From assembly GCA_019056805.1 (NCBI GenBank), contig DXJG01000007.1:1992-65991 (forward strand): a DNA stretch of 64,000 bases. The letters are read 5' to 3'. This document shows positions 37,526 to 64,000 of this stretch, piece after piece. This DNA comes from Candidatus Baldrarchaeota archaeon. GTDB lineage: Archaea > Asgardarchaeota > Baldrarchaeia > Baldrarchaeales > DXJG01. The notes under the pieces are model-generated. The model was not told the origin of the DNA, ran no database searches, and saw nothing but the letters and a program-made list of their open reading frames with translations. The translations under genes and the position numbers were made by a program. Position 1 is the stretch's first letter; each line of letters begins with the position of its first letter.

Positions 37526-40500
37526 ATGGTAAACTGCAAATTTGAACTTATAATATATATTACAACATTGTATGCGGGTGTTCTGATGAAAAGGACCATC
37601 TGCATATTAATAATTTTAGTGATGACATTAGCAGCCATTATGGATATAGTTGCCATGCCAGAGATAGATAGCGGGTCCCAGATTATAACTGCAGATAGGA
37701 AAGTATCATCTAACCTTGAAGATGACGTTATAATGTTAAGTAAGAACCAACCGCTTGAAAACCTCACAGCAGAACGTTTTTCAATTATCAGTTCGTTTCA
37801 TCGTGCACTTGGTAACTTTACTGGAGATGATATGCCAGAAGTTGCCTCAATAGCATATATAGACGGTAGAATACATTTCTATGATCTAGTTAATCGACAA
37901 ACGTATGCAATTAACAATGACACAGCTGGACCACAAGCTTGGAATGGTCTAATAATTGCTCGAGGAAATTTTGACCCAGACCCATGGGACGAGGTCATTA
38001 CTATTAACAAGACTGGTATCATAACAATTATAGATGGCAATGCTACAACTATCAAACGCATCGATCTGAACATTACAGAAGATATTAGTAATGTCATGTT
38101 TTTCGAAGTAGTTGATTTAGATCTTAATGGATACTCTGATACAGTAATGCTACTTAGAACAAACACATCGAAGGAAATTTTTACTATAGTAAATGGGACT
38201 CCTAGCGCTACCGAGGTGGTTCCTACAAATTTAACCTTGTCTCTTGCATTGGATGTAACTATAGGCAACTTTGCAGCCAATGATGGATTAGAACTTGCAA
38301 TTGTATATTCTGACTATACAGTAACCGTATATAATTATACATTTCAGCGTCTTGTGAATAGTACTATTCCTAATGTTTGTAGGATAGCAACTATAAGCAA
38401 CGCATCTTGGCACTATGATGCCCTTATTGCACTACTTTTAACCACACCAAAAAATGTAACTATTTACAATGCAACCACGCTAACGCCGCTTGGCTACTCG
38501 ACGTTAGTCGACTTTTATTTGAATGTAAAACCAAAGGCAGCTGACCTTGATGACGACAAAACAAATGAAGTTATAATTCCTACAGCAGATGGATTTGCAA
38601 TTTTTGACCTAAACACAAATAATATTACAAAAACAGCTATTCTATTTACAAATAGCCCAACATATCTTATTACATCGAAAATCACTAGAGACCAGACCTA
38701 TGACTTTGTAATTGGCAACAATGAAGTTCTATTCATGTTTAAGGGTGTCAAGGGTAGTGTTGCAAAGCCGAGAATTCTGCGAAAAATTTCTGAGCCTTCC
38801 TATATTCAGACATGTGAAGTATGGCAATACGACACTGGCTTACCGGATCTTTTCGTTCTAACCGATCTAACTGATTTTTCTCTTTATGTTTATAGGTCAG
38901 ATTCTAGTGCGCCACGTCTTAGTGATTTGAAAGTCTATCCTACTAGACCAACAGTTGATGATAGCTATGTTTCTATTTCAGCAAAAATCATCGACGAAGG
39001 TGTTTTTGATAATCCTGTTTTAGTCTATAACATTACTACGGTCAGTGGTACACTTTTAGAGCAAGGAGAAGTTTTAATGGTATCAGAATCATATATGAGT
39101 GATACCTATCTTGTTTATCTTTCGGATTTAAAAGCTGGGACATATACTTTCAAAATTATTGTAACTGACAGCTACGATAATAGAGCGATTTACGATAACA
39201 ACGGTTCCCTATATACATTCAATGTTTACAGTAAACTTCTGTTTCGAACAACGCTTCAAACGGTTACCTTGACCGCCCCTACTATAACTAGTGATCATCC
39301 AATGGATTTAGGTAAGCTGGATGGAGATCAATATGATGATGTAGTAATTGGAGTTTCAGATCATGCAGAGATCATATGGGGTAACCATAGCGTTACAATA
39401 CTTGATACATGGGCTGATGTAGACAATGTGGAAGTATATGTTGCGAATCTGCTAGCTGGTTCAAACGACGATATATTAGTTTACTATTATAATGTTACAA
39501 GCTCTCAGTATCAAATTAATATTTATGACGGTTTTTCACTAGAGGTATCAAAAAGATATACGTTCACCTCGGAAGTTCAGAATTTTGCATTTGGCGATGT
39601 TGACGGTGATGGATATGAGGATTTAGTGTTTAGTTTAGATGTAAATACTACACACGACAAACTCATCGTAATGAATACGGTAACCAGTGTAACTTTGCTA
39701 GAAAAAGAAATTATAAACACCCTTTACGTTGGAGTGTTCAATCTTACAGAAGACCAATACATGGATGTTATTGCGGTATCATTTGACTCCTCAACTAAGA
39801 TACTTAATTTAACTGCTTATGCTGGTGAACAAAATTTAAACATGATATACTTTTTCAACCAGTCTTTCCCAAGCGACGAAGATGTATATGAAGTGGTGGT
39901 TTTTGTCGATAACTTCATAACAACTGAATATTTGCAGGTTGCACTTGCCACAGGTTTATCGGGACATGACAAAATATTTTTATTGAACGCTAGTAACGGC
40001 TACTATTTAAAAGAGCGCGAAATACCATATATAACAGGACTGACTCCTGTTGATTACGGATTCGATGGGATCAAAGAGATATCCCTTATTTTATACGATA
40101 ATTCACTGATTATAGTTAGTTTGGCTAACGAATCCTTCAGTTTTAAGAAAGATTCGTTACTCCCAGAAACGCCTATTTCAACATTTTGGGATCATTTCGA
40201 TGAGGATAATTATAAGGACTTGATATATGTTCTATCTGATGAGATCGCTGTATATTCAATTGCTGAGGATCGTTTCGAAGTTGTACAGTATCCGTTCAGA
40301 ATGATACATTCGGCGAGTATTGGTAAATTCTTTGAACTTCCAAGCAAAGACATCTGTTTCCTTACGTATGACTTGATTTTTGAAAAATACATAAACATAA
40401 ATATGTTCTATAGACCAAACATTACTTTGTCCCTTAGCAACAATATTGTAGCTCAAGGCGAATCCACCGAGGTAATCGTAGAGATTAGAAACGTGTTTGG

Positions 40501-48962: not shown

Positions 48963-51935
48963 CTAGGCTTCCGAGGTATTTTCTGAAATTTTTGATACTT
49001 CAGTTTCATGTTTGGAATGTTGCGGGTATATTATGAGTAGTTCTTTATTTTCCTTTAACTTTAGCACCGTTTTGTATAATTTTATTCTCTCTGATTTTGG
49101 TAATTTTTCAAGTTCTTTTGCTAATTTTGGCATGTAAAAGAATTGGTCTTGATTTGAAATTTTTTGAATGATTTCCTTTAAGGAGCTAGGTATTTTTCTA
49201 CTGTCTTCTATCTTGTACATTGCCAAATTTTCTTTTCCAAAGATCTCATATATGATCTCCTCTGTGCCATTAAAAACTCCTAAGTCTCCTCTCCAATTAT
49301 TAAAAACATCTTTGAATTTTTCTTCGAATTTTTGTGTAATTTCTCTAATTATTTCTTTATTTTTAAGTTTCTCAGTTGAAATAGCAATTGTATATGTGTG
49401 CTCTCCAGAGGAACATGTTAAAAATCTTGGCTCTGGATCTCCATATGATATCTCATCAAGATATCCTACTTTACCGTTACTAAGTTCTGTGTAAAATGTT
49501 TGAACAGCTTGTATGAACCCAGCTATTAATTCAGGACTTCTTTCCTCGCCACCAAAAATTTTAACGTCTCTTACTGGAAGCCCGCTCCTTTTCTCAACTA
49601 ATAATATCTCTTCTATCGATGAAATGGAAGATAAGTGTTCTATTTCATTAATCAATTTTGCGATTGATTTTTTTCTGTGCACAAAGTAGACAGATGAAGA
49701 AAAGAAGAAAAGAAATAAGAAAATAAGTTCTTTGAAATATTGTTTAACATTTTCTTTCACTTTTTCCAGTATAGGAGCTAAGGATAAGTATGGTGTTATT
49801 TCTATGGTTTTTTCCTCCGATTGTGAAGGTAAATATTCTCTACTTCCATTAAAGTACACTATTATTGTTAGGTTTCCAGCTGTTTGCATTTTAAAATTGT
49901 AAAAAGCTTTGCCCTCGTTATTAGTTACAAGCGTTTCATTCCACTCTCTAGTTGTACCGTTTAAGGAAGTGAATTTTAACATTAAAATTAATTCTTTACC
50001 TGGGACCCCTGTTCCGTTAATATCTGTTAGTGTTATTTCAATTCCTATGTTCTTCCCGACAGAGGCTTTTGAAGGAGCTTCAAGAATTATCCTTGTTGGA
50101 ATAGGATAAATAAGATTTAGGGTTATATTTACATGAGTTTCTTCATAATATTCTTTTATTACGTATATTGAAACGTTATACATTCCTTCTGTTAATCCAT
50201 TTGTACCAACTATGCCCTCGTAACAGTTTGTTATGTTATTATAAGTGAATTGAATTGTTCCTTTTATCCATTTTCCGTAAATATTTGCATCTGTTATATT
50301 CTCTCCGGTTATGCCATCGACACATCTAACTTTAATGGTTATATTTTCTCCTAAAAGATAATATTCGCTTAGATTTTCAACTATAATCTTTATGGTGTAG
50401 AAAACGGAAAATGTACTTATTCTATACCCTATTTCCGTTCCATTGTAGAATAGTATTGCTACTTTGTATTCTCCTTTTTCCACGTTTTGAGGTATCCATG
50501 TGAAATTACTGCCTTCACTTATGTTCTTCGTTTCTTCATGAATTTTCACGTCAGTTACGTTGTATATTGCCATGGTTAAGTTTCCATTTGAAACTGTTAC
50601 TGTTGATTTCCACTGTACAGAAAATTCTATTTTGTGGTTTATCGTAACATTTGCTGGGTGGTCTAAACTTTTTATATAGTTTATTCCTTGAAAAATTAGA
50701 AACCATGGATCACTCATATTTACTGTTATTAAGTTTTCCTGTCTATCTATTACGTTATTTGTATTGTTTTGCAATGTCCAGTCTGATGGAACATGGAATT
50801 TCGTGCTACAATTCAAATAGCCGCTGGGAAAAGTGTAAGTTGAGTTAACATACCATGTAACATTATCATAGTTTGTGTTAATGAAACAAGATGTGTGTAA
50901 CAATTCTTCTTTTAAATGAGTAGTTTCACATGTGATATTAAATTTAAGTAACCAACTTGCCGTAACATTTAAAATTACGGGATCTTCAGTGATAAGATTC
51001 GTAAAAGTCCATGTTCCATTTTCATTAACTGATATATTATTTACTTTTAATTCATAGTCTTGAAAACTAGTTAATAACGGGGAAAGATGGACATATTGCA
51101 AAAAATAGTCTACATCTTCAGGTATGAAACTATTAGAATCAGAGTCGTAGTAGTATGCATATCCTTCATCAACTCCGTCGGTTGAAGCTGCTGGTGTAGA
51201 ATCATTATATGCCAGCCAACATACGTCTTCACTTGCCGTTAAGGCTCGAGCATATAGGTGCAAGAAGAACGTGTTATCGTAGGTTTTTGATGTGTCAAGT
51301 AAAAGGGGTGGATCGATTGTTATGTTTAATTGTAAGTATTGTGTTCCACTAATACTCATAATTGTGGTGTTGCTGATGAGCGTGGTATCTGGGTACGGTA
51401 GAATCTGCTCTTGAATTATTGTTCCTGTCGCATTCATTATAGCCCAGTCAATTGTTATTCCAGATATCACAGAGATGTTTAACTTTACTTCTAAACTCGT
51501 AAGATAACATATGCGAGGAACTCGAAAAGACATTACTCTTGGATAATCTCCAATAGAAATATTTCCCAAGGGAAGAGGGTCTTCAGGGTGTTGCATTTCT
51601 ATTTCTTTTGTTAGATTTTGCGGCTCTATATTTGTGAAGTTTAAAGCTATCTTTTCTGTGTTAAACCCGTGGGTTACAATATTTAGCGGGCTATAAAATG
51701 CGTCATTTTTTGCATCGAGAGACCTAACATGTGTTGTTTCATTATTTATCCAGTTTTTGATTTGTATTGCTGTTAGGTTTGAATGAATAATTCTATCACT
51801 AGACAAGGTAAAATTTGAAGTACATTGGGAAGGAAATGTTGAATTGGCTAAAACCTGTGGAGGGCTCATTATTGCGAAAAATATTAAAATTACTACAAGA
51901 AGTGTTAAAGTCTTCAGTTTTTCCACCAGAGTCAC
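48963..51935 (-). CDS. Large surface protein (990 aa): signal peptide, ~700-aa extracellular region, single TM, ~240-aa cytoplasmic tail with roadblock/longin-like domain
   Basis: N-terminal MTLVEKLKTLTLLVVILIFFAIMSPPQVLA; hydrophobic helix IFLFLFFFSSSVYFV followed by HRKK at ~aa 725-745; tail IEEILLVEKRSGLPVRDVKIFGG...LIAGFIQAVQTF...NNWRGDLGVF is homologous to the C-terminus of the 7032..9194 protein. Confidence 0.85.
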   Translation of the reverse strand: MTLVEKLKTLTLLVVILIFFAIMSPPQVLANSTFPSQCTSNFTLSSDRIIHSNLTAIQIKNWINNETTHVRSLDAKNDAFYSPLNIVTHGFNTEKIALNFTNIEPQNLTKEIEMQHPEDPLPLGNISIGDYPRVMSFRVPRICYLTSLEVKLNISVISGITIDWAIMNATGTIIQEQILPYPDTTLISNTTIMSISGTQYLQLNITIDPPLLLDTSKTYDNTFFLHLYARALTASEDVCWLAYNDSTPAASTDGVDEGYAYYYDSDSNSFIPEDVDYFLQYVHLSPLLTSFQDYELKVNNISVNENGTWTFTNLITEDPVILNVTASWLLKFNITCETTHLKEELLHTSCFINTNYDNVTWYVNSTYTFPSGYLNCSTKFHVPSDWTLQNNTNNVIDRQENLITVNMSDPWFLIFQGINYIKSLDHPANVTINHKIEFSVQWKSTVTVSNGNLTMAIYNVTDVKIHEETKNISEGSNFTWIPQNVEKGEYKVAILFYNGTEIGYRISTFSVFYTIKIIVENLSEYYLLGENITIKVRCVDGITGENITDANIYGKWIKGTIQFTYNNITNCYEGIVGTNGLTEGMYNVSIYVIKEYYEETHVNITLNLIYPIPTRIILEAPSKASVGKNIGIEITLTDINGTGVPGKELILMLKFTSLNGTTREWNETLVTNNEGKAFYNFKMQTAGNLTIIVYFNGSREYLPSQSEEKTIEITPYLSLAPILEKVKENVKQYFKELIFLFLFFFSSSVYFVHRKKSIAKLINEIEHLSSISSIEEILLVEKRSGLPVRDVKIFGGEERSPELIAGFIQAVQTFYTELSNGKVGYLDEISYGDPEPRFLTCSSGEHTYTIAISTEKLKNKEIIREITQKFEEKFKDVFNNWRGDLGVFNGTEEIIYEIFGKENLAMYKIEDSRKIPSSLKEIIQKISNQDQFFYMPKLAKELEKLPKSERIKLYKTVLKLKENKELLIIYPQHSKHETEVSKISENTSEA

Positions 51936-52087
51936 CGTAAGATATACTACTTTTCACTTTCATCAATTACTACTATTATTATAACAATATTATATAAAAT
52001 CATTTTAGCCATTGTTGTAAAGTTAAAATTGATATAGAAAACCAGATTCAAATATTAGTGAATTCTTGAAAAGCGGGATGAACCCTG

Positions 52088-52624
52088 ATGAAGAAGGAAA
52101 ATTTCACAAGTGTTGTTAAGAAAGTTCTTGAAAAGGAAGGAAAGTATATTAGTGGTAAAAGGAATGCAGCGGTTTTGGTCCCTTTAAGTATAGATAAGGC
52201 GCTTTATATTACATTTATAAAAAGGTCTAAAAATCTACAATTTCACAGAGGGGAAGTAGCGTTTCCTGGTGGTCTAAGAAAAAATAATGAAAGTCCTTTG
52301 GAGACAGCTTTTAGAGAAGCATGGGAAGAATTGAGAATACGGAAAGAAAATGTAGAAGTTCTTGGTTTTCTTCCTCCAACAGAAACTAGAACAACTAATA
52401 TTTACATTGTACCTGTTGTTGGATTAATACCGTTAAACTATCCATTCAAACTAAATAAAAAAGAAATAGAAAAAGTAATGCAAATTCCTATCAAAGAACT
52501 ATATAAAAACGTGTACGAAGATTTTTATGGAAAATATTATTTACATGATGGCTATAAAATCTGGGGAGCAACTGCAAGAATCTTGACAACCCTCTTAAAC
52601 AAGCTAAAAACAATAATCAAATGA
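52088..52624 (+). CDS. NUDIX hydrolase (CoA pyrophosphatase-like)
   Basis: Nudix box GGLRKNNESPLETAFREAWEELRI. Confidence 0.88.
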   Translation: MKKENFTSVVKKVLEKEGKYISGKRNAAVLVPLSIDKALYITFIKRSKNLQFHRGEVAFPGGLRKNNESPLETAFREAWEELRIRKENVEVLGFLPPTETRTTNIYIVPVVGLIPLNYPFKLNKKEIEKVMQIPIKELYKNVYEDFYGKYYLHDGYKIWGATARILTTLLNKLKTIIK

Positions 52625-52801
52625 TATCCCTATTTTCCATCAAAATATACTGAATTTAGTTTTTCCTTAAAAATTGTGATCCGTTTATTGGACAATTTCG
52701 ATTAATACAAACATAGTTACCTCAATTATTAAGTTTTAATTTCGAAGTTATTGATTAATCTTAATAAGGTTACAGTGTGTTATTATTTCTTGGTGTTTTT
52801 G

Positions 52802-53323
52802 ATGGAGATCAAAATTGGTGAATTGTTTAAGGAAGCTATGGAACACCCTTCGAAAGAATCCATTATTATGATGTCTGAAGGACTTGAAAAATTTGTTTTA
52901 ATGGTTATTAACGCTCTTGGAATTTTAGAAGAAAGAATTATCAACTTAGAAAATGAACTAAAATCTCTAAAGGAGACCATAGAATCAAAATTAAAGATAG
53001 AAAAAATGGAAATCCCACCAGCAAAACCTGTTCAAATTCCTGAATCAAAACTTCCTCCCTCACTTCCACCAGTTCCCTCCAAACCTACAGAAGAAATAGT
53101 TAAACCACCTACAAAGCCTCCTAAGGAGATAAGTGCTCCTAAGACTGTCGGGCCTGAAGAAAAAGATATTGAAGCCTTTAGAAAAGGATTGTTAAAACCT
53201 ACACCGAAAATTGAGGAAAAGGAGAAAAAACCTGTCTCTCTCAGAGATGCTCTTATGCAAGAATTAAAAAACTATTTTAATACTGCTATGAAAAAGGTTC
53301 GTAAAGAGGAAGTAGAGGAATGA
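52802..53323 (+). CDS. Hypothetical protein with coiled-coil and Pro-rich linker
   Basis: Start set at the internal ATG (MEIKIGELF); central PPAKPVQIPESKLPPSLPPVPSKPTEEIVKPPTKPPKE. Confidence 0.5.
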   Translation: MEIKIGELFKEAMEHPSKESIIMMSEGLEKFVLMVINALGILEERIINLENELKSLKETIESKLKIEKMEIPPAKPVQIPESKLPPSLPPVPSKPTEEIVKPPTKPPKEISAPKTVGPEEKDIEAFRKGLLKPTPKIEEKEKKPVSLRDALMQELKNYFNTAMKKVRKEEVEE

Positions 53324-53328
53324 AAATT

Positions 53329-54246
53329 CTAGGATAATATTTTTAGTACTTTTTCTTTTATTTCTTGAAGTGATGATAGAAGTTTTCCTAGTTTAAAGTC
53401 TCTTTCTTTTAGTATTGAAAACATAGCTATTTCATCGCTTATGTTGTAAACTGCGATGTATTCTCTTTTTATATGCCACAGTGCTAAGTCTGCTGTATCA
53501 AAGGTTATGTATCCGCTTTTACGTAGTTGCGAGAACATTGTTCTCACCGTCTCGATAGGTTTTATTAGAGATTTTGCAGATACATATTTTAGTTTCTTCG
53601 GGTTAATGAGTTCTTTGCTTATTGCTGAAGCTATTTCTAAACCGTCTCCCTTGTTTAGAATGAAAGATGCTAAGGCTTTTTGTTTTTTATTGAATTTTGC
53701 TAAGATTTTATGGATTTTCTCAGCCACTTCTTTTGCTTCTTTGGAAAGAACGCTATCTAAGAGTTTACAAACAACCGTTCTAGCTGTTCCCTCTGGTATA
53801 GATGTGGCCTCAACAACCACATTATGATTTCCAAATATTTTTCGTATTTCCTTTATGGAAATCTTTTTTATATCATATTTGCTGGCTAAAACGAATATTC
53901 TTGCATTCGGAGAATATTTTTTAAGATATTCTAGGGCTTTAAGATATTCTTGTTTTGCTTCATCGATTGTTTCTTTGTTAGAGGAGTCTACTACGAAGAA
54001 GAATGCACCTACGTTTGAAAATATTTTTCCTGACCATTGATCTGTGAAATATTTGTATATGAATTGTTTTTGTCCTCCTACATCAAAAGTTGTAACTTCT
54101 AATAAGCCTCTATACTTGTATGTTTTTGTACTTACAAATTCTGTTGGTTCTAAGTTCTTTACATCGTCCCAGTCTTTCCCTTCAAAAACATGTTTAACCA
54201 AAGATGTTTTTCCAGCTGCTCTTAACCCCATTATTAAAACTTTCAT
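53329..54246 (-). CDS. Small GTPase of the Arf/Sar/Rag-like type with a ~140-aa C-terminal extension
   Basis: G1 GLRAAGKTS, G3 DVGGQ (the form seen in Arf/Sar and Rag families), G4-like ASKYD; start set at the internal ATG (MKVLIMG). Confidence 0.85.
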   Translation of the reverse strand: MKVLIMGLRAAGKTSLVKHVFEGKDWDDVKNLEPTEFVSTKTYKYRGLLEVTTFDVGGQKQFIYKYFTDQWSGKIFSNVGAFFFVVDSSNKETIDEAKQEYLKALEYLKKYSPNARIFVLASKYDIKKISIKEIRKIFGNHNVVVEATSIPEGTARTVVCKLLDSVLSKEAKEVAEKIHKILAKFNKKQKALASFILNKGDGLEIASAISKELINPKKLKYVSAKSLIKPIETVRTMFSQLRKSGYITFDTADLALWHIKREYIAVYNISDEIAMFSILKERDFKLGKLLSSLQEIKEKVLKILS

Positions 54247-54376
54247 TTTAAACAACCTTTAATGCTATTTCAAAACTTGAATTTAATTTATTTACTTCTA
54301 AATAGAGTATATACTTTTCTATTAGAAACATATTATTACAATTAAAAATGTAGACTTCATTTGCAGAATTTCAACT

Positions 54377-55741
54377 TTAAGACGCAATAACGTAGGTAAT
54401 TGAGATTAAACAAAAGTTGATTAAAATATATAGAAGCAAGATTATTATTCCTCGTTTATTCACTAATTTTCCTTTAGAAGACCCTAAATATATTAGGATT
54501 CCAGAAATAAAGCTTAGAGTTGCATAGTGAATTTCTGAGGGATCAGGAAATTTTGGATAGAAAAGTTCTGGAATAAGTAGGGTTGGTAAATTCACTACTT
54601 TAAGCAATAGAAGTAGAAGTTCGATGAAAATCAAGATGAGACATGTTTTTGACAATTTTTCTCTAACCGTTATTAGCGAACATATGAGAAGTGAAGAAAT
54701 TAGCATTAATGTTAATGTGAAGAGATTATAGCCTACATAAATTAGATAGGTGATTATACAGAGAGATATTATAATTATGAGGTCTCTATATGGAAAACTT
54801 ATTCTTTGAGTGATTCTTTTGGCTTTTCTACTGCCTAAAGTTCCCATGGAAATAAGAAATCCGGATAGTAAGGCTAAAAATATGTATATATAGAAACTTG
54901 AGGTTATAGTCGCAGGAAAAGGCTGCAGACCTTTAATGACTGTTAAATTAAATAATTTTGTAGCTATTGCTTGAGAAGAGGTTAAAGCAAGTTCAACTAT
55001 AACTAATACATATACTAAATATAGTGGCCAGTCTTTTCTAGCGTATAAGTTGAAAAGAAGTGCTCCCCAAGTTGCATAAAATATTATGGTTGTAATTTCA
55101 TACATAGCAAATGAAAATGTAAGTAACACCATACCTAGGATGAATATAAGTCCCCTTATTGGTAAAGGTGACTCAGAGATCTCTGAAATTTTCCTATCTA
55201 CCTTTTCGACTAAGGCTGGCCTTTTTAATGGTTGAAATAATTTAACGTGTTTCTTATCTTCTACTTTTGGGGACAATGGTTTTTTGAGAGATTTCAATTG
55301 TTTATAGAAGGATTTTAATATTTTTTGATAATTGCTCCAGTTTTCTTGCATTTTTGATATAACATTTGATAACTTTTCTTTTACATCCTCTGAATCTTCA
55401 ATTTCATCTGCAATTATGGCCAAAGCGTATATTTCCTTACCTCCTCTAGCTTCTTCAGACTCTATATAAAATCTTTTAGCTAAACATTTGGTACCTGAAA
55501 TCGAGAACAAAGTGTATTCTAGTTCCTCCCCCATTCCAATCGCGTTTTTTGCTATTTTCTCTAAAATTTCGGGTTTTCGTGCAAAAAGTCTACCAGGATA
55601 TTTATTTACTGGTATGAAACCTTTAACTTCATCAAACTTACATAGAACTAAACCCTTTAGGTTAACTTTTCTATCTTTTACAGATTCTTCCACCTTAAAA
55701 TTACTTTCACTGGACTTTTGATTCTCTTTATTATTTGTCAA
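54377..55741 (-). CDS. Membrane protein with N-terminal cytoplasmic alpha/beta domain (possible roadblock/longin-like) and C-terminal polytopic region
   Basis: N-terminal ~150 aa hydrophilic (GLVLCKFDEVKGFIPV...EIYALAIIADEIEDSEDVKEKLSNVISKMQENW), then about 8 hydrophobic helices. Lies immediately upstream of, and on the same strand as, the GTPase gene. Confidence 0.75.
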   Translation of the reverse strand: MTNNKENQKSSESNFKVEESVKDRKVNLKGLVLCKFDEVKGFIPVNKYPGRLFARKPEILEKIAKNAIGMGEELEYTLFSISGTKCLAKRFYIESEEARGGKEIYALAIIADEIEDSEDVKEKLSNVISKMQENWSNYQKILKSFYKQLKSLKKPLSPKVEDKKHVKLFQPLKRPALVEKVDRKISEISESPLPIRGLIFILGMVLLTFSFAMYEITTIIFYATWGALLFNLYARKDWPLYLVYVLVIVELALTSSQAIATKLFNLTVIKGLQPFPATITSSFYIYIFLALLSGFLISMGTLGSRKAKRITQRISFPYRDLIIIISLCIITYLIYVGYNLFTLTLMLISSLLICSLITVREKLSKTCLILIFIELLLLLLKVVNLPTLLIPELFYPKFPDPSEIHYATLSFISGILIYLGSSKGKLVNKRGIIILLLYILINFCLISITYVIAS

Positions 55742-55940
55742 CTTACATAATTACCTCCAACAAACGTTCAAAGCCTAAAATAGTGAAGCGGTATTTAACA
55801 GCCCTTAATTTAGTTAATTAAAACTTATCTATTATGAAACTTAAAAACGCTTCTAAGAATTTCTGTGTGCGTATATCTAAAATTAAAGGTAAAATGGTTT
55901 CAACAGAGGAAAACGAACTAAAAGTTCAAAATAACACTTG

Positions 55941-56831
55941 TCATGCTATTGTAAGTGTATAAATTCCAAGAATAATAACTGCAATGCCTAGTAAACGTAA
56001 CTTATCAAGTTTTTCTTTAAGAACTGTAGTTCCAAGAATTGTTGAGAATAGCGGGGAACTAGAGGCTATTATAGTAGTTTTAGCCACACCTATCAGATTT
56101 ATTGCAAAAAGGAAGAGTAGTGATCCAAGTCCTATCGCAAAAATACCCCCGATCGAGAGAACGAGTAGGGTCTTTTTATCCATGCTTTTGAGCTCCTTTT
56201 TCCGTCTCTCTTTAGATAATATTAGTAGCCATACGATTATGTTAAGAATTAATAGCCTTACAAGATTTAAGAAGACGGGAGATACACTTAGGAGAACAAT
56301 TTTAAGAATTGTCATACTTATACCCCAAGAAAGGGAAGCCATTATTGCAGCAATTAAACCTCTAACCATGTGTTTACTCTGACTGTTTTCAGCTTTGAGA
56401 AACAATAAAAATACCCCTAGTACAACAAGTATAGCGCTTATGAAGGTCCATATGTTGATAGTTTCTTGTAAGAAGAAGTATGCGAAAATTGCGACAAAAA
56501 GGGAATATGTATAAGAAACTGGATGTCCTATTGCTACACCAGCATCTCTAATAGCCACAAGAAATAAGGAATCGCCAAGAAGAATGCCGAAAGAAACATC
56601 TACTACTATAAGTAAGAAAAGCCATACGGATAAATTATGAATTTGATATATTTCGCCCATAATTGCTACTGCGGCAAGCATAAAAATTAGGCTTGGAATT
56701 GTTCTAATGCCATTTGCAACTATTACATCTGAGTTTTCTGTTTTTAACCCAACTTTATAAAGTACTGTTGCTAAAGACCACGAGATCGCTGTTAATAAAC
56801 TTAACACAATCCCAACTTCTACTGTATGCAA
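55941..56831 (-). CDS. EamA/DMT-family transporter (copy 1)
   Basis: 296 aa, about 10 TM helices in two homologous halves; paralog of 59877..60767. Confidence 0.85.
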   Translation of the reverse strand: MHTVEVGIVLSLLTAISWSLATVLYKVGLKTENSDVIVANGIRTIPSLIFMLAAVAIMGEIYQIHNLSVWLFLLIVVDVSFGILLGDSLFLVAIRDAGVAIGHPVSYTYSLFVAIFAYFFLQETINIWTFISAILVVLGVFLLFLKAENSQSKHMVRGLIAAIMASLSWGISMTILKIVLLSVSPVFLNLVRLLILNIIVWLLILSKERRKKELKSMDKKTLLVLSIGGIFAIGLGSLLFLFAINLIGVAKTTIIASSSPLFSTILGTTVLKEKLDKLRLLGIAVIILGIYTLTIA

Positions 56832-57329
56832 AATTGTGTCCCCATCACTGTTTTTACTGGTTAAACATTTTAGTGATAAAATAGTAGTTTGATATAAATT
56901 TTCGCATCGAAAAATGACGTAAATGGAACAAATTTTAATCGGATTTTCCCGTTGACCTGTTCAGACCTGTTATTTGTCGATAGTTTTATGTTTACATTTA
57001 AAGCCACCTTTGACTGTTAGACCACACTATTCACTCTAATTACATGCTTTGATTTTTGTAAATAAAGGATTTTTACAAGCAATAACATGAAAATACAGCA
57101 TTCAAAATATTATTGGATGAAATTATAGGAAAACATTTTGAAAAAGGATACATAATCTTTTCATTTGTTAAAGAATTAAAAGGAAAAAACGAGTTATTAA
57201 AATAAAATATTTTTAATTCGGTTTTAGTTTCTTAGCCAAAAATTGTTGACCAGAAAAACCATTAATTGAGTAAAATTAATTAAATATGGTTACACTAAAG
57301 TTAAATTACAAATTGTATCGGGGATAGTT

Positions 57330-57974
57330 GTGCTACCATTAGAATACATTGTTAAGGTTGTAATTATTACCTCCTCTGGTGCTTTATCTCCTGGTCCCCT
57401 TACAGCTTCAACCATCGCTGCTGGATCTAGTGAAGGTTGGAAAAATGGATTTAAAATTAGTGTGGGACATATGATCGTAGAAATGCCTCTAGTGTTTTTA
57501 ATAGCTTTTGGCATCGCAACCCTGCTTGCAACACCTGTTATTGAAAGAGTGATAAGTTTTGCCGGGGGCAGTCTTCTAATATTACTAGGTGCTTTTATGC
57601 TGAAAGACGTATTTAAAAAAGATTTTGGCGACGAAAATGTTTCTAGTAATGCTGTGCGTTCTCCCCTTATGATTGGAATTTTACTTTCTCTTTTTAATCC
57701 ATATTTTTTAGTTTGGTGGATACTTGTAGGTGGAGCTCTCGTCATTGAAGCTATACTTCTTGCAGGTCTTATAGGTGTTGGTTTAATGTTTATTGCGCAT
57801 ATTTGGATGGACTATGCTTGGTTAATGCTATTATCTGAACTTTCTAAGAAGGGAAAACAGATTCTTAAAACAAAGGGATATAAGATATTATTAGCTGGTA
57901 TTTCGCTTGCTTTGATATTTTTTGGAATAGATTTTATCTCTTTATCAATATTTGGTTCAGGCATCCTTCTATAG
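57330..57974 (+). CDS. LysE/RhtB-type small exporter-like membrane protein
   Basis: About 6 TM helices and N-terminal SPGP motif characteristic of the LysE translocator family; GTG start. Confidence 0.7.
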   Translation: MLPLEYIVKVVIITSSGALSPGPLTASTIAAGSSEGWKNGFKISVGHMIVEMPLVFLIAFGIATLLATPVIERVISFAGGSLLILLGAFMLKDVFKKDFGDENVSSNAVRSPLMIGILLSLFNPYFLVWWILVGGALVIEAILLAGLIGVGLMFIAHIWMDYAWLMLLSELSKKGKQILKTKGYKILLAGISLALIFFGIDFISLSIFGSGILL

Positions 57975-58060
57975 AAACTTTTACAACTCATTAAATTAGT
58001 AAAATACATATGAGAACTAAATTCTCTCCACTTATAGAATAGAGAGGATGTTGAAGTGCA

Positions 58061-58981
58061 ATGTCCAAAATTGAATTTGATCCTCGTTTTTGGCATAATA
58101 TTCAAGGTCCCTTCGAAATGGATGTTTCAAGAAGATTTGAATACGATGAGGATTCTTTAGAATTGATTAGACGATGGTTGAGACTTCATGATTCCCAAGT
58201 TGAGGTAATAGTGGAAGTTGGTTCTGGAAGTGGATATTTTACCGAGAAACTTGTTGAAATGACTCATGGACAAGCAAAAATAGTTTGTGTTGAGCCAGAT
58301 GATGTACTAAGACGATATGCTGAAACTAAACTAGCTGGAAAAGCTGAATTTTTAAGTGGTTATGTTGAAGATCTTCCTTTGCCAAGTGATTACGCTGATT
58401 TAACAGTTTGCCACATCCTTCTACATAACCTTCCTGATATTTACAAAGCAGTAAGAGAAATGGTACGCGTAACGAGAAAAGGTGGCATAGTTGCAGCAAT
58501 AGAACCTGCTATAGGAAGTTTCCATTATTATCCTGACGAAACGCTTAACAAACTTATTGAAAAAGTTCAAAAAGCTTTTGGCAAGAGTGTTTGGGAATTA
58601 AGAACTAAATTAATGAAATATCCAAGGGAGAAGCCTTGGATATACAAACCAGCTTATTATGTCAAGGTTTTTCACGAATGCGGGCTTACGGAGATAGAAA
58701 TTCATGGAATCTTGTCTGTGTTCCTTTTAAGCGATCCACGTAGGTCTAGAAATCAGATAATAGAATGGCTCAAAGATAGATTAAAAGTATTAAAGGAAAC
58801 CGAAAAACAGGATTATGTTATTTTAAAGCGTGGTGGATTGAGTAAACAAGAGATAACCAGGTATCGTCAAAAATATAGACAGTACTTAGAAAAATTGATA
58901 AAGAAACCTGAACTCATCTCTGAAACTCATGAAATGGAAATAACTTCGAGAATATTAATTTTAGGCCTAAAAAGAGAGTGA
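58061..58981 (+). CDS. Class I SAM-dependent methyltransferase
   Basis: Motif I VVEVGSGSGYFTEKL, acidic motif II region, motif-post-I pattern. Confidence 0.8.
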   Translation: MSKIEFDPRFWHNIQGPFEMDVSRRFEYDEDSLELIRRWLRLHDSQVEVIVEVGSGSGYFTEKLVEMTHGQAKIVCVEPDDVLRRYAETKLAGKAEFLSGYVEDLPLPSDYADLTVCHILLHNLPDIYKAVREMVRVTRKGGIVAAIEPAIGSFHYYPDETLNKLIEKVQKAFGKSVWELRTKLMKYPREKPWIYKPAYYVKVFHECGLTEIEIHGILSVFLLSDPRRSRNQIIEWLKDRLKVLKETEKQDYVILKRGGLSKQEITRYRQKYRQYLEKLIKKPELISETHEMEITSRILILGLKRE

Positions 58982-59166
58982 AATCTGTTATTTAAGATGA
59001 ATAATGTTATGTCATTTATGATGTATATTGTAGTAGTATTTGTAGCAACATTTATATTGTAATGATATTATAATATGTTTGTAAAAAGCTTTTTTATAGA
59101 TTCGGCAAAACAACTGGGGTTCTTGGATTGGGTAGGAAAGCTCTCGCAGTATACATTGGAGCATGT

Positions 59167-59844
59167 ATGTCTCGTAACTCTATGCCTAGAATGCGGGGAT
59201 ATATTTTCCCTGATGGAAAATATGTATTTATACCTCAGGTAAGTAGTAATCAACATGCTCCAGGTCCAACCTATAGAGATCTAGGCCTTGACGAGTATGT
59301 ACACCCCAGTTATTATGGATTAAAGGTACATTACGACCCTGAATTTGAAACTTTCACATATGGTGAATACGTAGGGAAAGCAGATCCATGTACTAAGAAT
59401 TTGTTGCAGTTAAAACCTGGCGATTATTTGTTTTTTGTTACGTCTCTCCAGTTTAGCCCTGGTTCCTATAGACGCGAGTGGTGGGTTAAGCTAGAATGGG
59501 CTTATTACATCATTGGTTATTTTGAAATAGAAGAGATATTTAATCACAAGGACCTTAACGTGGCTGCTGTTCAACATAAGTTGCGTAATAATGCTCATAT
59601 TATTGCAGGAGACACAAGGCCTGACCTTGTAATATGGAAAGGTAGTGAACGCTCCGCAAAATTAGAATACGCTGTTCCAATAAGTGATAAAAATATTCCA
59701 ACCTCTCTAGCTTGTGAAATTTTCAAAGTAGATTTAAGGAAGAGAATAAGGCCTAGATGGTGGCAAACCTATTTAATAAATGAAAATAGACTTGAGAAAC
59801 TATGGAGACTCATTAAATCAATCAATATTATTCACATTTTCTGA
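59167..59844 (+). CDS. Hypothetical protein
   Basis: ORF 59128..59844; start tentatively placed at the first ATG. No recognisable motif. Confidence 0.5.
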   Translation: MSRNSMPRMRGYIFPDGKYVFIPQVSSNQHAPGPTYRDLGLDEYVHPSYYGLKVHYDPEFETFTYGEYVGKADPCTKNLLQLKPGDYLFFVTSLQFSPGSYRREWWVKLEWAYYIIGYFEIEEIFNHKDLNVAAVQHKLRNNAHIIAGDTRPDLVIWKGSERSAKLEYAVPISDKNIPTSLACEIFKVDLRKRIRPRWWQTYLINENRLEKLWRLIKSINIIHIF

Positions 59845-59876
59845 TTTTACTATTTTTGTTGTAAAATGTTAATTTA

Positions 59877-60767
59877 TCATGTTATTGCGAGTATATAGAT
59901 TCCAAGGATAATAGTTGCTATACCTATTGTACGTGGTTTATCGAGTTTTTCTTTAAGTATTGCAACTCCGAAAATTGTTGAAAAGAGTGGAGAACTTGAG
60001 GTTATTATTGTAGATTTCGCTGCACCTATCAAATTTATTGAGAAAAGAAATAATAGTGCTCCGAGACCTATTCCAAGAATACCACCAGCTAACAGAACAG
60101 TTAAACTTAATCTCCTCAAATTCTTAATTTCTTTCCTCTTACTTCTTTTGGGTAGTATTAGTAGCCATACAATTATATTAAGAACAATTAACCTTACAAA
60201 GTTAAGGAAGAGAGGCTCTATGTTTAGAAGAAGAACTTTGAGAATGGGTATGCTTGTACCCCAGCAAAAAGCAGCTAACAATGCTGCAATTAATCCTTTA
60301 ACCATATGATTATTTTGATTTCTCTCCGCTTTGAAAAATAATAGAAATATTCCTGAAACGACGAGTATAGCGCTTATGAAGGTCCATATGTTGACGGTTT
60401 CTTGTAGGAGGAAGTATGCAAAGATTGTGACAAAAAGAGAGTACGTATATGATACTGGGTATCCTATTGCTACACCAGCATCTCTTAAAGCTATGAAAAA
60501 CAAGCAATCACCAAGTAAAATACCTAGGGAAACATTTACTACTATAAGGAAGAGAAGCCATGAGGTTAGTTTGTTAACTTCGCTTAATTTTCCCATGATT
60601 ATTGTTACGAGAAATATAAAGATTAAAGCTGAAACGGCTCTAACACCATTTGCAACTATTACATCTGAATGTTCTTCTTTCAACCCAACCTTGTAGAGCA
60701 CCGCTGCCAGTGACCATGAAATCGCTGTTAATATGCTTAACAGTATTCCAATTTCTTCTGCAAGCAA
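59877..60767 (-). CDS. EamA/DMT-family transporter (copy 2)
   Basis: Roughly 65 percent identical by eye to 55941..56831 (ILTAISWSLA.VLYKVGLK...HSDVIVANG.R, GDSLF/GDCLF, RDAGVAIG.PVSYTYSLF). Confidence 0.85.
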   Translation of the reverse strand: MLAEEIGILLSILTAISWSLAAVLYKVGLKEEHSDVIVANGVRAVSALIFIFLVTIIMGKLSEVNKLTSWLLFLIVVNVSLGILLGDCLFFIALRDAGVAIGYPVSYTYSLFVTIFAYFLLQETVNIWTFISAILVVSGIFLLFFKAERNQNNHMVKGLIAALLAAFCWGTSIPILKVLLLNIEPLFLNFVRLIVLNIIVWLLILPKRSKRKEIKNLRRLSLTVLLAGGILGIGLGALLFLFSINLIGAAKSTIITSSSPLFSTIFGVAILKEKLDKPRTIGIATIILGIYILAIT

Positions 60768-60940
60768 GACTTACACCTGATAATTTTAGTTGATATTTGG
60801 AATTTGAAACAGCAGAATACAATATCAACTTAACATAAAATTTTCTCTCTTAATTACTGGTACAGTTTTAATATCTTATGTAATCGTTGGGAACATGTTT
60901 CACATTGTTATAAATTACTGTTATAAGATATAATGGGTTG

Positions 60941-61774
60941 TCAACGTTTTAGTATACCTATTGCCATTATTATGAGAGCTTCCATCAGTTTATACGCTTC
61001 TACGATATCTTGAGCTGTGTAGCCTACGATGTTTCCTTGTATTCTTTTAACATTGGGAATAAGTTCAGCTACATCTGCCATTGTTGAATCTGTAAACTCT
61101 AACTCAACGTTAAAGGGTGGTTGAGGCTTAAATGAAGCAACTTGTTTCTTCTTTACTTTTTCAATCGCCTTGGGAACAGCTTTTCTTATTTCTTTTTCTA
61201 TGGTTTTTGGATGTTTTGTTAATGCTGCTCTACGTCCCAAAGCATACTTAGTAACTATTGTCTCGATATTTGGTACGGTGTTTTTAGCATGTTCAATAAG
61301 TTTATCATCTCCAGTAACAAGTGATATTGGCACATTGTAGTATCCTGCTACTGCAGCATTTAGCCAAAATTCGCTTACTTCAAATCCATTGATTTTGATT
61401 CTTTGTATTGTTGACCCGCTTATTGTATGATCTAAGATAGAGTGAATGGTCCCCTTCTTTGAATGATAACCTAGAAATAGAGCTGTATCAAATCCTTTGT
61501 CTATGTAAGCAACCATGCATGTGGCTCTTGGAAACCCTGTTACTACGTCAACATATTCTGGTAATTCTTCTATTAGAAGATTTATCATACTGCCATGGGA
61601 ATCTGCGACAACAATCTTCTCTGCACCAGTTTCTTGTAGCGCTTCAACTGCTGCTTTAACTTCTAGTGTCATCCATTTTCTAGCCCTTTCATACTCTTTT
61701 GAGTCAGATATGACATGTTTTAAAGAAACAACACCAACAATACCCTCCATATCGACTGAAATAAAAACTCTCAA
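60941..61774 (-). CDS. M55-family D-aminopeptidase (DppA-like)
   Basis: N-terminus MRVFISVDMEGIVGV, characteristic of DppA/M55 peptidases; length 277 aa. Confidence 0.85.
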   Translation of the reverse strand: MRVFISVDMEGIVGVVSLKHVISDSKEYERARKWMTLEVKAAVEALQETGAEKIVVADSHGSMINLLIEELPEYVDVVTGFPRATCMVAYIDKGFDTALFLGYHSKKGTIHSILDHTISGSTIQRIKINGFEVSEFWLNAAVAGYYNVPISLVTGDDKLIEHAKNTVPNIETIVTKYALGRRAALTKHPKTIEKEIRKAVPKAIEKVKKKQVASFKPQPPFNVELEFTDSTMADVAELIPNVKRIQGNIVGYTAQDIVEAYKLMEALIIMAIGILKR

Positions 61775-62230
61775 ACATTACACCTCCACTGGTAACATAA
61801 ATCATCTTCTATTTGTTAATTCGTTTTAGTAAACTTTCTTCACTACTGATTTCTCTCTAATTTAATTAATCTTATTTTAACAAGATAGCGGAAGATACGA
61901 TTTTATCACATAAGTTTAATAATTTAAAGGATAGCTTGATTTGATAGAATTAAAGGTTATCATTATTGAATTATTTAATAATATAATGAAGGTTACTAAG
62001 TTTATTTTTGAAAGACTATTAATTATATGATACTATTAGAAAATTAAATAGTTTAGAATATAGATTAAATAAAATTTTATGTTAAACTGTCAAATTGTTT
62101 TAAAGTTCTTGAGATAAATTTTTAAATATTCAAATTCTCTTATTTTAGCAAAAAATTACCTTCTAGCTTACTTTCTCGATCAAAGCAAAAAGCAAGATGC
62201 TCTTAAAAATGGGATAAGAGGTGTATAAAA

Positions 62231-64000
62231 GTGGATATCGCAGTTGAGCCAGAATGGTGGTACCTATGGATTCCTTTGCTAGCTAGCCTCATAGCTATTG
62301 GTGTGATTGCATATCTTATATCATACATTAAAAAGAAACCCGTTGGAACAGAGAAAATGAAAGAAATCGCCGAGGCTATCAGAATAGGCGCTAAGGCCTA
62401 TCTAAAACGTCAAAACACCACGATCGCCATGGTCGCCCTGATTATAGCTGTCGGTCTATACATATATGACTTTGTCAGTCACGGTGGAATCCCATTCTAT
62501 TCCCTTGCATTCGTTCTAGGAGCAGCAGCATCTACCTTAGCCGGGTACATAGGTATGAACATCTCCACAATTGCTCATGTAAGAACCACCGAAGCCGCTA
62601 GGAACCATAATCTTCCCGAAGCAACAAAAATCGCATTTCGTGGCGGTGCAGTCACAGGTTTAGGTATTACAAGTATAAGTATTCTCAGCCTCACCATCTT
62701 ATACTATGTTTATTCAATGATTGCCGGTGTTCCAAACCCAGAACTAGTAGTTAGCTTCGGTTTCGGTGCCAGCTTAGTAGGTCTTTTTGCCCAGCTTGGA
62801 GGCGGCATCTACACTAAGGGTGCAGATGTTGGTGCAGATATAAGTGGAAAGGTTGAAGAAGGAATTCCTGAAGATGATCCAAGAAACCCAGCAGTAATAG
62901 CTGACCTAGTTGGAGACAACGTAGGCGACTGCGCTGGCAGAGGAGCTGACCTATTTGAATCTTTCACCGATAACAATATTGGTGCTATGATTCTTGGAAT
63001 AGCACTCGTAGCATACTTTGGCTTCGCTGGCGTAGTATTTCCATTAATTGCAGGTGCCATCGGCATCGTAGCCTCAATTATCGGTATCTTAACCGTAGGT
63101 AAAATTAAGAAAGATGACCCAATGATGTCAATAAATGCAGGATACATTCTAATGGGTATCACGGCAGCGATTTTGTTCTATATCTCCATAGTATTAATGT
63201 TAGGAGGAAAAATTGTCTTTTTCATCGATATTGTTATTGGCATAATCACCGCTGTTTTAGTTGGCCTCTTAATACAATATTACACCAGCTATCAATACAA
63301 GCCAGTTAAGACCATAGCTGAGGCAGCAAAAACAGGGCCTGCAACAAACGTTATCACAGGACTAGCAGTCGGAATGAAGAGCACTGGAATACCACTCATC
63401 GTATTATCTGCTGCGATAATTATCTCGTACATAATCTCTGGCGGATTAGTCGACCATAAGATGGGCTTTTACGGAATCGCCATGGCTACACTGGGCATGT
63501 TATCTATGACCAGTATAATCATGTCCTCTGACACATTTGGCCCAATAACCGATAATGCCGGTGGAATTGCAGAAATGTCTGGCCTTGGCGAAGACGTTAG
63601 AAAAATCACTGACATGCTAGACTCTATTGGTAACACTACAAAAGCTATAACTAAAGGATATGCCATGGGCTGTGCAACACTTTCAGCATTCGTCCTCTTT
63701 GCATCATACCTTGAAATAGTATCCGCAAGGATCCCAGATTTCACCATTAGCCTAACATCGCCTGTAACGATTCTAGGACTGTTTCTTGGAGGAATTGTTC
63801 CATTCCTATTCTCAGCATACGCAATAGAGGCTGTTGGAAAAGCAGCATTCAAGATTGTAGAGGAAGTAAGAAGACAATTCAGAGAAATACCTGGATTAAG
63901 AGAAGGAAAAGCAAAGCCGAGATACGATGTGGCTGTTGACATTGCGACAAAGGCAGGTATAAAGGGTATGCTTATCCCTGGTGCCATAGGTATTATAAGT
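62231..64000 (+). CDS. hppA: Membrane-bound H+-translocating (V-type) inorganic pyrophosphatase, 5' portion; runs off the window end
   Basis: My own translation from the GTG at ~62231 gives [55 protein letters not shown], the canonical PPase motifs. Not in the ORF track because the frame has no stop before the window end. Confidence 0.93.

Follow-up and report, generated by a model that had tools for sequence, protein, structure and literature searches.

An ancient pair of EamA-type permease genes around a LysE-family gene, a methyltransferase gene and an Nmad3-family gene in a Baldrarchaeota archaeon

Described relatives of the five genes

The EamA/DMT permeases with ten transmembrane segments (PF00892), such as YddG, RhtA and EamA of E. 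coli, are the closest described systems for two of the genes considered here, which we call EamA1 and EamA2. Like them, the two proteins encoded in the window (the whole stretch of 64,000 nucleotides that was analysed) have about 300 amino acids and two EamA repeats, and Pfam finds two stretches of the domain in each (142.8 and 147.6 bits, the cutoff being 28.2). Their matches to better defined members are weak: every score against the NCBIfam equivalogs YddG, RarD, EamA and TIGR00950 ("carboxylate/amino acid/amine transporter") is far under the curated cutoff, e.g. 68 against 230 bits, and the best solved relative is LicB (structure 7B0K, E 5e-6). The window pair is without a characterised orthologue. 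A search of 5.8 billion proteins gave about 18 close homologues, the next best being 29% identical and outside their clade. A third gene resembles the LysE/RhtB-type amino-acid exporters (LeuE, RhtB/RhtC), as its product has a full-length LysE domain (PF01810, 115.9 bits against a gathering score of 25.6, profile positions 2-191 of 193). However, this protein does not reach the cutoffs of LeuE and TIGR00949 (45 bits where 165 are required), its RhtB-type matches are also far below, and by sequence no solved structure was matched. From the Pfam domains and the sub-cutoff NCBIfam matches, EamA1, EamA2 and the LysE protein are predicted to be secondary carriers of small polar metabolites such as amino acids, carboxylates or amines.

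The closest described relative of the fourth gene is LahSB of a Lachnospiraceae bacterium (6UAK), whose reported activity is the O-methylation of the C-terminal carboxyl group of a lanthipeptide (PMC11285071). Both by sequence and by fold, the window methyltransferase matches LahSB best, over nearly its full length, and in both proteins additional N-terminal and C-terminal elements elaborate a class I Rossmann core. They share, however, only 23% identity, there is no lanthipeptide or other RiPP gene in the window neighbourhood, and the archaeal methyltransferase family is widespread, single-copy in Bathyarchaeia and found in housekeeping-type contexts. The fifth gene belongs to Nmad3 (PF18754, "nucleotide modification associated domain 3"), a family of bacteria and phages. 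Its product exceeds the Pfam cutoff (61 bits against 27) and keeps the invariant motif of the family (H68-x-DPEFET-x-x-YG, D99, GY130-131, N155-x-H157). Unlike the fused or linked members, it stands alone on an Asgard chromosome, beside transporter genes and without an Nmad2 or ADDT/aGPT-Pplase partner. A literature search in a restricted paper collection found no description of the Nmad3 family; its "association" with modification is accordingly taken from the fusions and gene contexts seen in this analysis.

Arrangement of the locus and properties of the encoded proteins

The two EamA genes flank three genes of the plus strand (Table 1), as the first-pass annotation had read from the letters. 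Its LysE-like exporter and SAM methyltransferase are confirmed by the Pfam domains LysE and Methyltransf_11, and its "hypothetical gene" is indeed present, although it can now be named Nmad3. That the genes are truly so arranged is confirmed by independent assemblies, two contigs from JGI metagenomes and one from Logan, which show 100% identity to the window across 14.1 kb and 3.97 kb. Relative to the three bracketed genes, EamA2 is convergent and EamA1 divergent; the EamA genes being on the opposite strand, a shared operon with the trio is impossible. The gaps among the bracketed genes are 86 and 146 nt, and an A/T-rich TATA-like motif, read directly from the sequence, lies 5' of each of their starts, so that the LysE, methyltransferase and Nmad3 genes are most likely separate transcription units. 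There were no RNA genes in the Rfam scan of positions 52000-64000 and no tRNAs in the whole window, and the only PADLOC and PHROGs matches were to generic methyltransferase domains.

Table 1. Features of the locus, with positions in the window.
Feature	Position	Strand	Description
EamA1	55941..56831	-	296 aa, DMT/EamA permease, clade A1 paralogue; Pfam EamA x2, E 1e-41
LysE-family translocator	57330..57974	+	214 aa; Pfam LysE E 2e-33
Class I SAM-dependent methyltransferase, LahSB-like	58061..58981	+	306 aa; Methyltransf_11 E 9.6e-18
Nmad3-family protein	59128..59844	+	238 aa; PF18754; "hypothetical gene" of the first-pass annotation
EamA2	59877..60767	-	296 aa, clade A2 paralogue, synteny-anchored copy; Pfam EamA x2, E 3.4e-43
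M55 D-aminopeptidase (DppA-like)	60941..61774	-	Synteny anchor on the EamA2 side; Peptidase_M55 E 6e-99
Rearranged slot	55651..57320	.	Holds EamA1 and both its intergenic flanks; absent here in the closest relative, L011
31-nt identical tract, copy 1	56428..56458	-	In EamA1, QE(T)xNIWTFISAIL transmembrane segment
31-nt identical tract, copy 2	60364..60394	-	In EamA2

The methyltransferase family profile matches 6UAK with E 1.3e-28 over residues 7-238. Its AF2 model (pLDDT 93.7) again ranks 6UAK as the first Foldseek match (E 1.7e-19, TM 0.71/0.73, 305 aligned columns); the other named top matches are small-molecule methyltransferases, and none of the top matches is a methyltransferase of DNA or RNA. 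The sequence has the features expected of a Rossmann-fold SAM-binding core with a glycine-rich motif I, namely VEVGSGSGYF at residues 50-59, and G54, G56 and G58 do not vary in any of 37 homologues. By analogy with LahSB, the protein is predicted to be a small-molecule or peptide methyltransferase, perhaps acting on a carboxyl oxygen. The Nmad3 protein matches no solved structure by sequence. Its AF2 model (pLDDT 82.7) gives Foldseek matches in PDB and BFVD that are consistently PUA-like (McrB-N, THYN1 EVE, ASCH, YTH) and weak (best E 2e-3, TM 0.33-0.45). A PUA-like (ASCH/EVE-like) fold is thus a weakly supported prediction, and the protein may be a candidate binder of nucleotides or modified nucleic acid.

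Age of the EamA pair and rearrangement of its neighbourhood

The identity of the EamA proteins, estimated by eye at about 65 percent in the first-pass annotation, is 67% by BLASTP (197/295 identities, no gaps, E 2e-134), and that of the DNA is 73.4%. The repeat spans 55938-56831 and 59874-60767 with a spacing of exactly 3936 nt, and EamA1 and EamA2 are true paralogues. The short identical DNA that had been pointed out is also there: the quoted 29-mer occurs exactly twice (56430-56458 and 60366-60394; chance expectation 0), within the 31-nt run that is the longest between the two genes. Under codon shuffling such a run is of marginal significance (P = 0.013), and its amino acids are conserved in all EamA orthologues. 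At synonymous sites the tract is closer to the paralogue of the same genome than to the orthologues, and dS is 0.90 between the two window paralogues, less than between EamA1 and its orthologues (1.2-1.3); on these two grounds some concerted evolution between the window copies is possible. Gene conversion between them was rejected for want of a convincing tract and is retained as a caveat only. At the clade-distinguishing sites EamA1 has 44 A1-type and 17 A2-type states, which are scattered, and the bases common only to the two window copies (14, against 3-11 in mismatched control pairs) are scattered as well, without a clustered conversion signal in the shared-private-site test.

The identity matrix of the homologues separates two clades, with 72-97% and 77-100% identity within and 60-69% between them; EamA1 is 72-75% identical to its orthologues in L004, L005, L007 and L008. 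The outgroup-rooted NJ tree recovers both clades (bootstrap 94 for A1 and 100 for A2) with congruent internal topologies, and places a window copy in the basal position of each. As each clade has orthologues in other genomes, the sequences put the duplication before the common ancestor of the sampled genomes. These are about eight distinct genomes, all metagenomic and Baldrarchaeia-like; one true relative came from the scan of genome contigs, and the other contexts from exact-protein look-ups. So far the EamA pair has been found only in such Baldrarchaeia-like Asgard archaea. The dS is about 0.9-1.4 for the paralogue and deep orthologue pairs, near saturation. Both genes are under purifying selection, with dN/dS of 0.10-0.24 overall and 0.12-0.13 between EamA1 and its orthologues.

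This history bears on the proposal that a recent segmental (tandem) EamA duplication in this genome was later split by the LysE, methyltransferase and third genes. The pair does look the part, with both copies on the same strand, equal in length, alignable without gaps and sharing the 31-nt tract. However, each copy is nearer to orthologues elsewhere than to its own paralogue, the two window copies came out as sisters in none of 200 bootstrap replicates, and the dS of 0.9 is not that of a recent event. The alignment of the two genes with their flanks, which the first-pass annotation had suggested for delimiting a duplicated segment, found similarity that ends at the CDS ends, with nothing common beyond. 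In the relatives LysE lies between the copies, and beside EamA2 the Nmad3 and methyltransferase genes seem to be the ancestral state. A recent duplication followed by insertion is therefore hardly credible. A mobile-element or segmental-duplication origin of the pair was likewise rejected, as nothing beyond the CDS is similar and a repeat search around the copies gave no notable terminal direct or inverted repeats. A pair at once ancient, devoid of common flanks and dispersed in relatives was what the first-pass annotation had named as contrary to its duplication; ancient and without common flanks it is, but the copies are not dispersed, lying 4-25 kb apart across the window and the relatives.

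In the synteny comparison that had also been suggested, the order EamA2-Nmad3-methyltransferase-LysE occurs in three lineages (the window, L011/L012 and L013), which span both sides of the A2 root, and the EamA1 slot is rearranged. Megablast against L011 runs at 91% down to window position 57321 and restarts at 84% from 55650; in place of EamA1, L011 has genes for a 75-aa protein, NUDIX, Flavin_Reduct and a 151-aa protein, with no EamA1 within 10 kb, and in the window NUDIX is relocated to 52088-52624. The intergenic regions around EamA1 (55742-55940 and 56832-57329) match no relative. Both copies were seen about 25 kb apart in L006/L004 and 6.5 kb apart in L007/L008, with LysE between them in every genome where both were observed; the LysE protein has 78-95% identity in those relatives where the locus extends over its position. 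In every relative EamA2 follows closely downstream of the gene for the M55 peptidase DppA (87-95% identity of DppA), adjoining it directly or, in most of them, across a MazE/PIN (or MazE) antitoxin module. In one sub-clade, unrelated hypothetical genes take the place of the Nmad3 and methyltransferase genes, and LysE and EamA2 persist there unchanged.

Readings of the bracketed genes and their meaning

We consider it likely that the locus as a whole is an ancient EamA paralogue pair in a slowly reshuffling neighbourhood, the bracketed genes being independent genes. A single duplication would have preceded the divergence of the sampled lineages, and both copies would have been retained as functional 296-aa DMT permeases that presumably diverged in substrate or regulatory role. 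The neighbourhood is broadly shared in order with the relatives (H+-PPase, DppA, EamA2, LysE, NUDIX, small-GTPase block, EamA1, PEPCK), its junctions being reshuffled repeatedly and, in relatives, colonised by toxin-antitoxin pairs, with EamA2 as the copy anchored beside DppA. In the window lineage EamA1 would have come to occupy the 1.7-kb slot immediately upstream of LysE, where L011 has NUDIX and small ORFs, and the tight 3.9-kb bracket would follow from this slot, which is missing from L011. The bracketed genes would never have been inserted into a duplicate; Nmad3 and the methyltransferase would be ancestral neighbours of EamA2 whose place other genes took in one sub-clade.

The other suggestion of the first-pass annotation, a cassette for modification and export, would have the LahSB-like methyltransferase, possibly with Nmad3, methylate a metabolite or peptide whose product or precursor is moved by the LysE and/or EamA carriers. 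The part of it that held is the gene order, shared by three diverged lineages whose proteins are about 82-91% identical, with intergenic regions conserved in L011; order retained despite saturated dS could mean functional coupling and not inertia. The resemblance of the methyltransferase to small-molecule or peptide enzymes, rather than to those acting on nucleic acids, and the D-aminopeptidase gene nearby also fit. However, the whole 20-kb region is syntenic among the relatives anyway, so that adjacency carries little weight, and the synteny behind a possible cassette is lineage-restricted. Where Nmad3 and the methyltransferase have given way to other genes the exporters are still present, the L013 methyltransferase seems frameshifted with its neighbours intact, and the convergent EamA2 and divergent EamA1 leave no common operon with the trio. 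Elsewhere the homologues are unlinked: methyltransferase orthologues of 50-58% identity are widespread in Bathyarchaeia, and in the two contexts of this type examined (L016, L017) they are without LysE, Nmad3 or exporter linkage; likewise, the Nmad3 genes of L014 and the P0034 contig are without LysE and methyltransferase, so that the few contexts sampled beyond the close lineage gave no co-occurrence of the components. We thus think a modification-and-export function unlikely. In another reading, which draws on other observations, Nmad3 and the methyltransferase would be a pair serving nucleic-acid modification or a defence-type function, in a variable island with an EamA gene at either end. 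Fusions of Nmad3 with Nmad2 or with the ADDT/aGPT-Pplase domains of thymidine hypermodification occur among its distant homologues, and one bacterial homologue (P0034 contig) has a DnaB_C-Nmad2-DUF2779-WYL context. To these can be added the likeness of the predicted Nmad3 fold to PUA-like readers of modified bases, toxin-antitoxin pairs at neighbouring junctions in relatives, and a weak PADLOC mad2 match of the methyltransferase. Yet by its fold the methyltransferase resembles small-molecule enzymes, Nmad3 itself has no PADLOC match and only the weak Foldseek matches given above, and the window locus has no Nmad2, ADDT/aGPT-Pplase, glycosylase, kinase or nuclease. Nucleotide- or DNA-modification genes were found near distant members of the family only, with none near Nmad3 in the Baldr-like relatives, and another archaeal Nmad3 gene (L014) lies among translation-factor genes. 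Such a pair is highly improbable here.

Returning to the ancient paralogue pair in a reshuffled neighbourhood, the locus illustrates that the tidy pattern of duplicate genes bracketing a cassette can come from an old pair and local rearrangement. The finding has little weight beyond annotation. What it adds is a record of an EamA subfamily, restricted to Baldrarchaeia, in which two paralogues are conserved, and names for two Asgard genes with poor annotation so far, one as Nmad3, with a weakly supported PUA-like fold prediction, and one as a LahSB-like methyltransferase. It is also conceivable, if decidedly doubtful, that the EamA2/Nmad3-methyltransferase-LysE block is an Asgard-specific module in which a PUA-like Nmad3 and the LahSB-like methyltransferase process a nucleotide-, amino-acid- or peptide-derived metabolite moved by the flanking carriers. 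If true, this would be the first cellular role of Nmad3 outside defence and would provide a handle on an uncharacterised family.

The EamA pair and its surroundings

The first-pass annotation described two same-strand EamA paralogues around three plus-strand genes, an arrangement confirmed by open reading frames (ORFs), Pfam, BLASTP, a quoted 29-mer and independent contigs. The feature table was built from the ORF list and Pfam matches. EamA1 and EamA2 share 67% protein identity over 295 residues without gaps (E 2e-134) and 73.4% DNA identity over their coding sequences (71%, 87% and 62% at codon positions 1, 2 and 3), and the 29-mer occurs exactly twice in the window, with no occurrence expected by chance. 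Two JGI metagenome contigs and one Logan contig match the arrangement at 100% identity, thus ruling out mis-assembly. Aligning the genes with their flanks, proposed earlier as a way of delimiting a duplicated segment, revealed similarity confined to the coding sequences (55938–56831 versus 59874–60767, offset 3936 nt), with no alignment of the compared flanks outside them.

Features of the EamA locus and of neighbouring parts of the window
Feature	Position	Strand	Length	Assignment
EamA1	55941–56831	-	296 aa	Pfam EamA x2
LysE	57330–57974	+	214 aa	Pfam LysE
Methyltransferase	58061–58981	+	306 aa	class I SAM, Methyltransf_11
Nmad3	59128–59844	+	238 aa	PF18754, 61 bits vs cutoff 27
EamA2	59877–60767	-	296 aa	Pfam EamA x2
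DppA-like	60941–61774	-	277 aa	Peptidase_M55 D-aminopeptidase
Three-gene block	52751–55741
190-aa protein (in block)		+	190 aa
Small GTPase (in block)	53329–54255	-		Gtr1/RagA/Arf-like
Polytopic membrane protein (in block)	54377–55741	-	454 aa	no Pfam match
Large ORF	258–6710		2150 aa
Large ORF	10782–15104		1440 aa
Large ORF	37526–42442		1638 aa
Large ORF	48963–51935		990 aa	weak bacterial Ig-like (Big) matches

The window has a G+C content of ~32% and carries Asgard-type genes such as the small GTPase; its sole genomic relative among GTDB species representatives is one Ca. Baldrarchaeota MAG, and a deposited protein sharing at least 90% identity with its Nmad3 is assigned to Candidatus Baldrarchaeota archaeon. 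A Baldrarchaeia-like Asgard source is accordingly the most likely one. The G+C content climbs to 42–45% at 62200–64000, across a gene for an H+-translocating pyrophosphatase whose product is 90–97% identical to those of relatives; tandem pyrophosphatase paralogues, two each and ~44% identical to one another, occur in the relatives L006, L007, L013, L019 and L020. Faint Big/FG-GAP/invasin matches are also seen in the L004 orthologue of the 1638-aa protein, which, like the 990-aa protein, is probably a giant surface protein.

An old duplication and a derived bracket

Close relatives of this EamA subfamily number only ~18 among 5.8 billion proteins and the next match is 29% identical, so the subfamily is restricted to a narrow lineage. 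The relatives form two groups, EamA1-type (72–97% identity within) and EamA2-type (77–100% within), with 60–69% identity between them. In an outgroup-rooted NJ tree the corresponding clades A1 and A2 received 94% and 100% bootstrap support, with a window copy basal in each, and 0/200 replicates paired the window's own copies as sisters. One member of each clade lies on a single contig in two other genome lineages (L004/L006; L007 and L008). Values of dS, between paralogues as between deep orthologues, are near saturation (0.9–1.4), and a dN/dS of 0.10–0.24 in the same kinds of pairs indicates purifying selection on both copies. On these sequence comparisons, the duplication predates the last ancestor that the sampled genomes share, and both copies are functional genes.

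Gene conversion between the copies is unproven and would be minor if it occurred. A 31-nt identical run exceeds the codon-shuffled expectation (P = 0.013), EamA1 being closer there to EamA2 and to EamA2 of the closest relative (L011) than to its own orthologues (synonymous sites, residue 124), and the dS of the window paralogues (0.90) is lower than that of the window copies against their orthologues. The run sits in the most conserved transmembrane segment. At clade-distinguishing sites EamA1 has 44 A1-type and 17 A2-type states, spread along the gene, and the 14 bases private to both window copies (3–11 in mismatched control pairs) are likewise scattered.

Synteny was assessed from gene contexts of relatives and a blastp map, orders being given in the relatives' orientation (the window is reversed). 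The backbone reads H+-PPase(s), DppA, (MazE/PIN), EamA2, variable slot, LysE, (HEPN/MNT), NUDIX, (Lar/FAD-oxidase/CCG), ~450-aa membrane protein, GTPase, 173-aa protein, EamA1, 103-aa protein, PEPCK. The EamA copies lie ~25 kb apart in L006/L004 and 6.5 kb apart in L007/L008, in both cases with LysE between them. In the window the order is DppA, EamA2, Nmad3, methyltransferase, LysE, EamA1, 454-aa protein, GTPase, 190-aa protein, NUDIX, so that EamA1 and NUDIX have swapped sides of the GTPase block. The alignment with L011 (91% DNA identity) ends exactly at the start of LysE (57321) and picks up again at 55650; all intergenic regions from DppA to LysE are 85–91% conserved with L011, and neither intergenic flank of EamA1 matches any relative. 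This break, the unmatched flanks and the gene orders mark the tight bracket as a local rearrangement that is derived in the lineage of the window. The slot between EamA2 and LysE is occupied by Nmad3 and the methyltransferase in the window, L011/L012 and L013; these straddle the root of the A2 clade, making this content ancestral by parsimony. In the L006–L010 sub-clade the slot holds unrelated hypothetical genes. Segmental duplication followed by insertion, the earlier suggestion, was accordingly rejected: the two clades are old, the flanks unalignable and the supposed insert apparently ancestral, the duplication being older than the ancestor of the sampled genomes and the bracket a product of local rearrangement.

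The 190-aa/GTPase/454-aa block travels together in most Baldrarchaeia-like relatives examined, and is not at this position in L007/L008. Toxin-antitoxin pairs are found in L006–L010 and L013 (e.g. L007 9198–9846 and 14583–15525), MazE/PIN between DppA and EamA2 and HEPN/MNT beside LysE; the same junctions are empty in the window and L011, and look like variable insertion slots.

The bracketed genes

LysE has a clear Pfam domain match yet falls under every equivalog cutoff, and therefore receives no substrate assignment. The methyltransferase family profile matches LahSB (PDB 6UAK; E 1.3e-28, residues 7–238) far above generic class I methyltransferases, and LahSB is also the best structural match of its confident AlphaFold2 model (pLDDT 93.7; TM 0.71/0.73, 23% identity). 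The remaining named top matches are small-molecule methyltransferases, with no nucleic-acid enzyme among them. The reported activity of LahSB is methylation of lanthipeptides at their C-terminal carboxylate (PMC11285071). As no RiPP genes are present near the methyltransferase, the likeness in sequence and fold is a lead on chemistry and not a claim of family membership. Orthologues (50–58% identity) are widespread in Bathyarchaeia, with neither Nmad3 nor LysE beside them in 2/2 contexts examined. In the hydrothermal-vent relative L013 (11801–12645) the orthologue is broken into two ORFs of 219 aa and 52 aa, probably by a frameshift or as a pseudogene, and the adjoining Nmad3, LysE and EamA2 are intact.

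Nmad3, previously a hypothetical gene, belongs to an uncharacterised family of ~1200 representative clusters at 50% identity with the invariant motif HxDPEFE..YG / D / GY / NxH; members include the window protein and P0158, P0174, P0180 and P0220. Long members are fusions with Nmad2, ADDT/aGPT-Pplase domains or TPR repeats, and one bacterial member lies in a DnaB_C-Nmad2-DUF2779-WYL context. In contrast to such defence-like bacterial contexts, the distant archaeal homologue P0030 (287 aa; L014 7148–10572) lies among translation-related housekeeping genes, between eIF-2beta/DUF424 and ApbA/eIF-1A, with RIO1 and KH genes nearby. Foldseek matches of the confident AlphaFold2 model of the window protein (pLDDT 82.7) are weak (best E 2e-3, TM 0.33–0.45); the highest-ranking ones, from PDB as well as from BFVD, are all PUA-like readers of modified bases (McrB-N, THYN1/EVE, ASCH, YTH). 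With moderate confidence, we predict a PUA-like fold that would bind nucleotides or nucleic acids; our literature search found no paper describing the Nmad3 fold. That Nmad3 and the methyltransferase form a nucleic-acid modification or defence pair seems highly improbable.

The other earlier suggestion, that the bracketed genes and carriers form a modification-and-export cassette, is also unlikely, if somewhat less so. The order EamA2, Nmad3, methyltransferase, LysE is kept in three lineages, but the entire region is syntenic and adjacency therefore carries little weight. Moreover, LysE and EamA2 stay in place in relatives that have other genes instead of Nmad3 and the methyltransferase, the methyltransferase is split in L013 beside intact neighbours, and sampled contexts outside the lineage lack any Nmad3/methyltransferase/exporter linkage. 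EamA2 is oriented convergently and EamA1 divergently with respect to the plus-strand trio, and A/T-rich TATA-like motifs (read by eye from the sequence) lie in the 86-nt and 146-nt gaps.

Taken together, the EamA bracket is a real observation with an ordinary explanation, and the components of the locus are additional members of known families (DMT/EamA, LysE, class I methyltransferase, Nmad3). What is left over is a pairing, conserved within the lineage and so far unexplained, between a predicted PUA-like Nmad3 and a LahSB-like methyltransferase beside two exporters in an Asgard archaeon.
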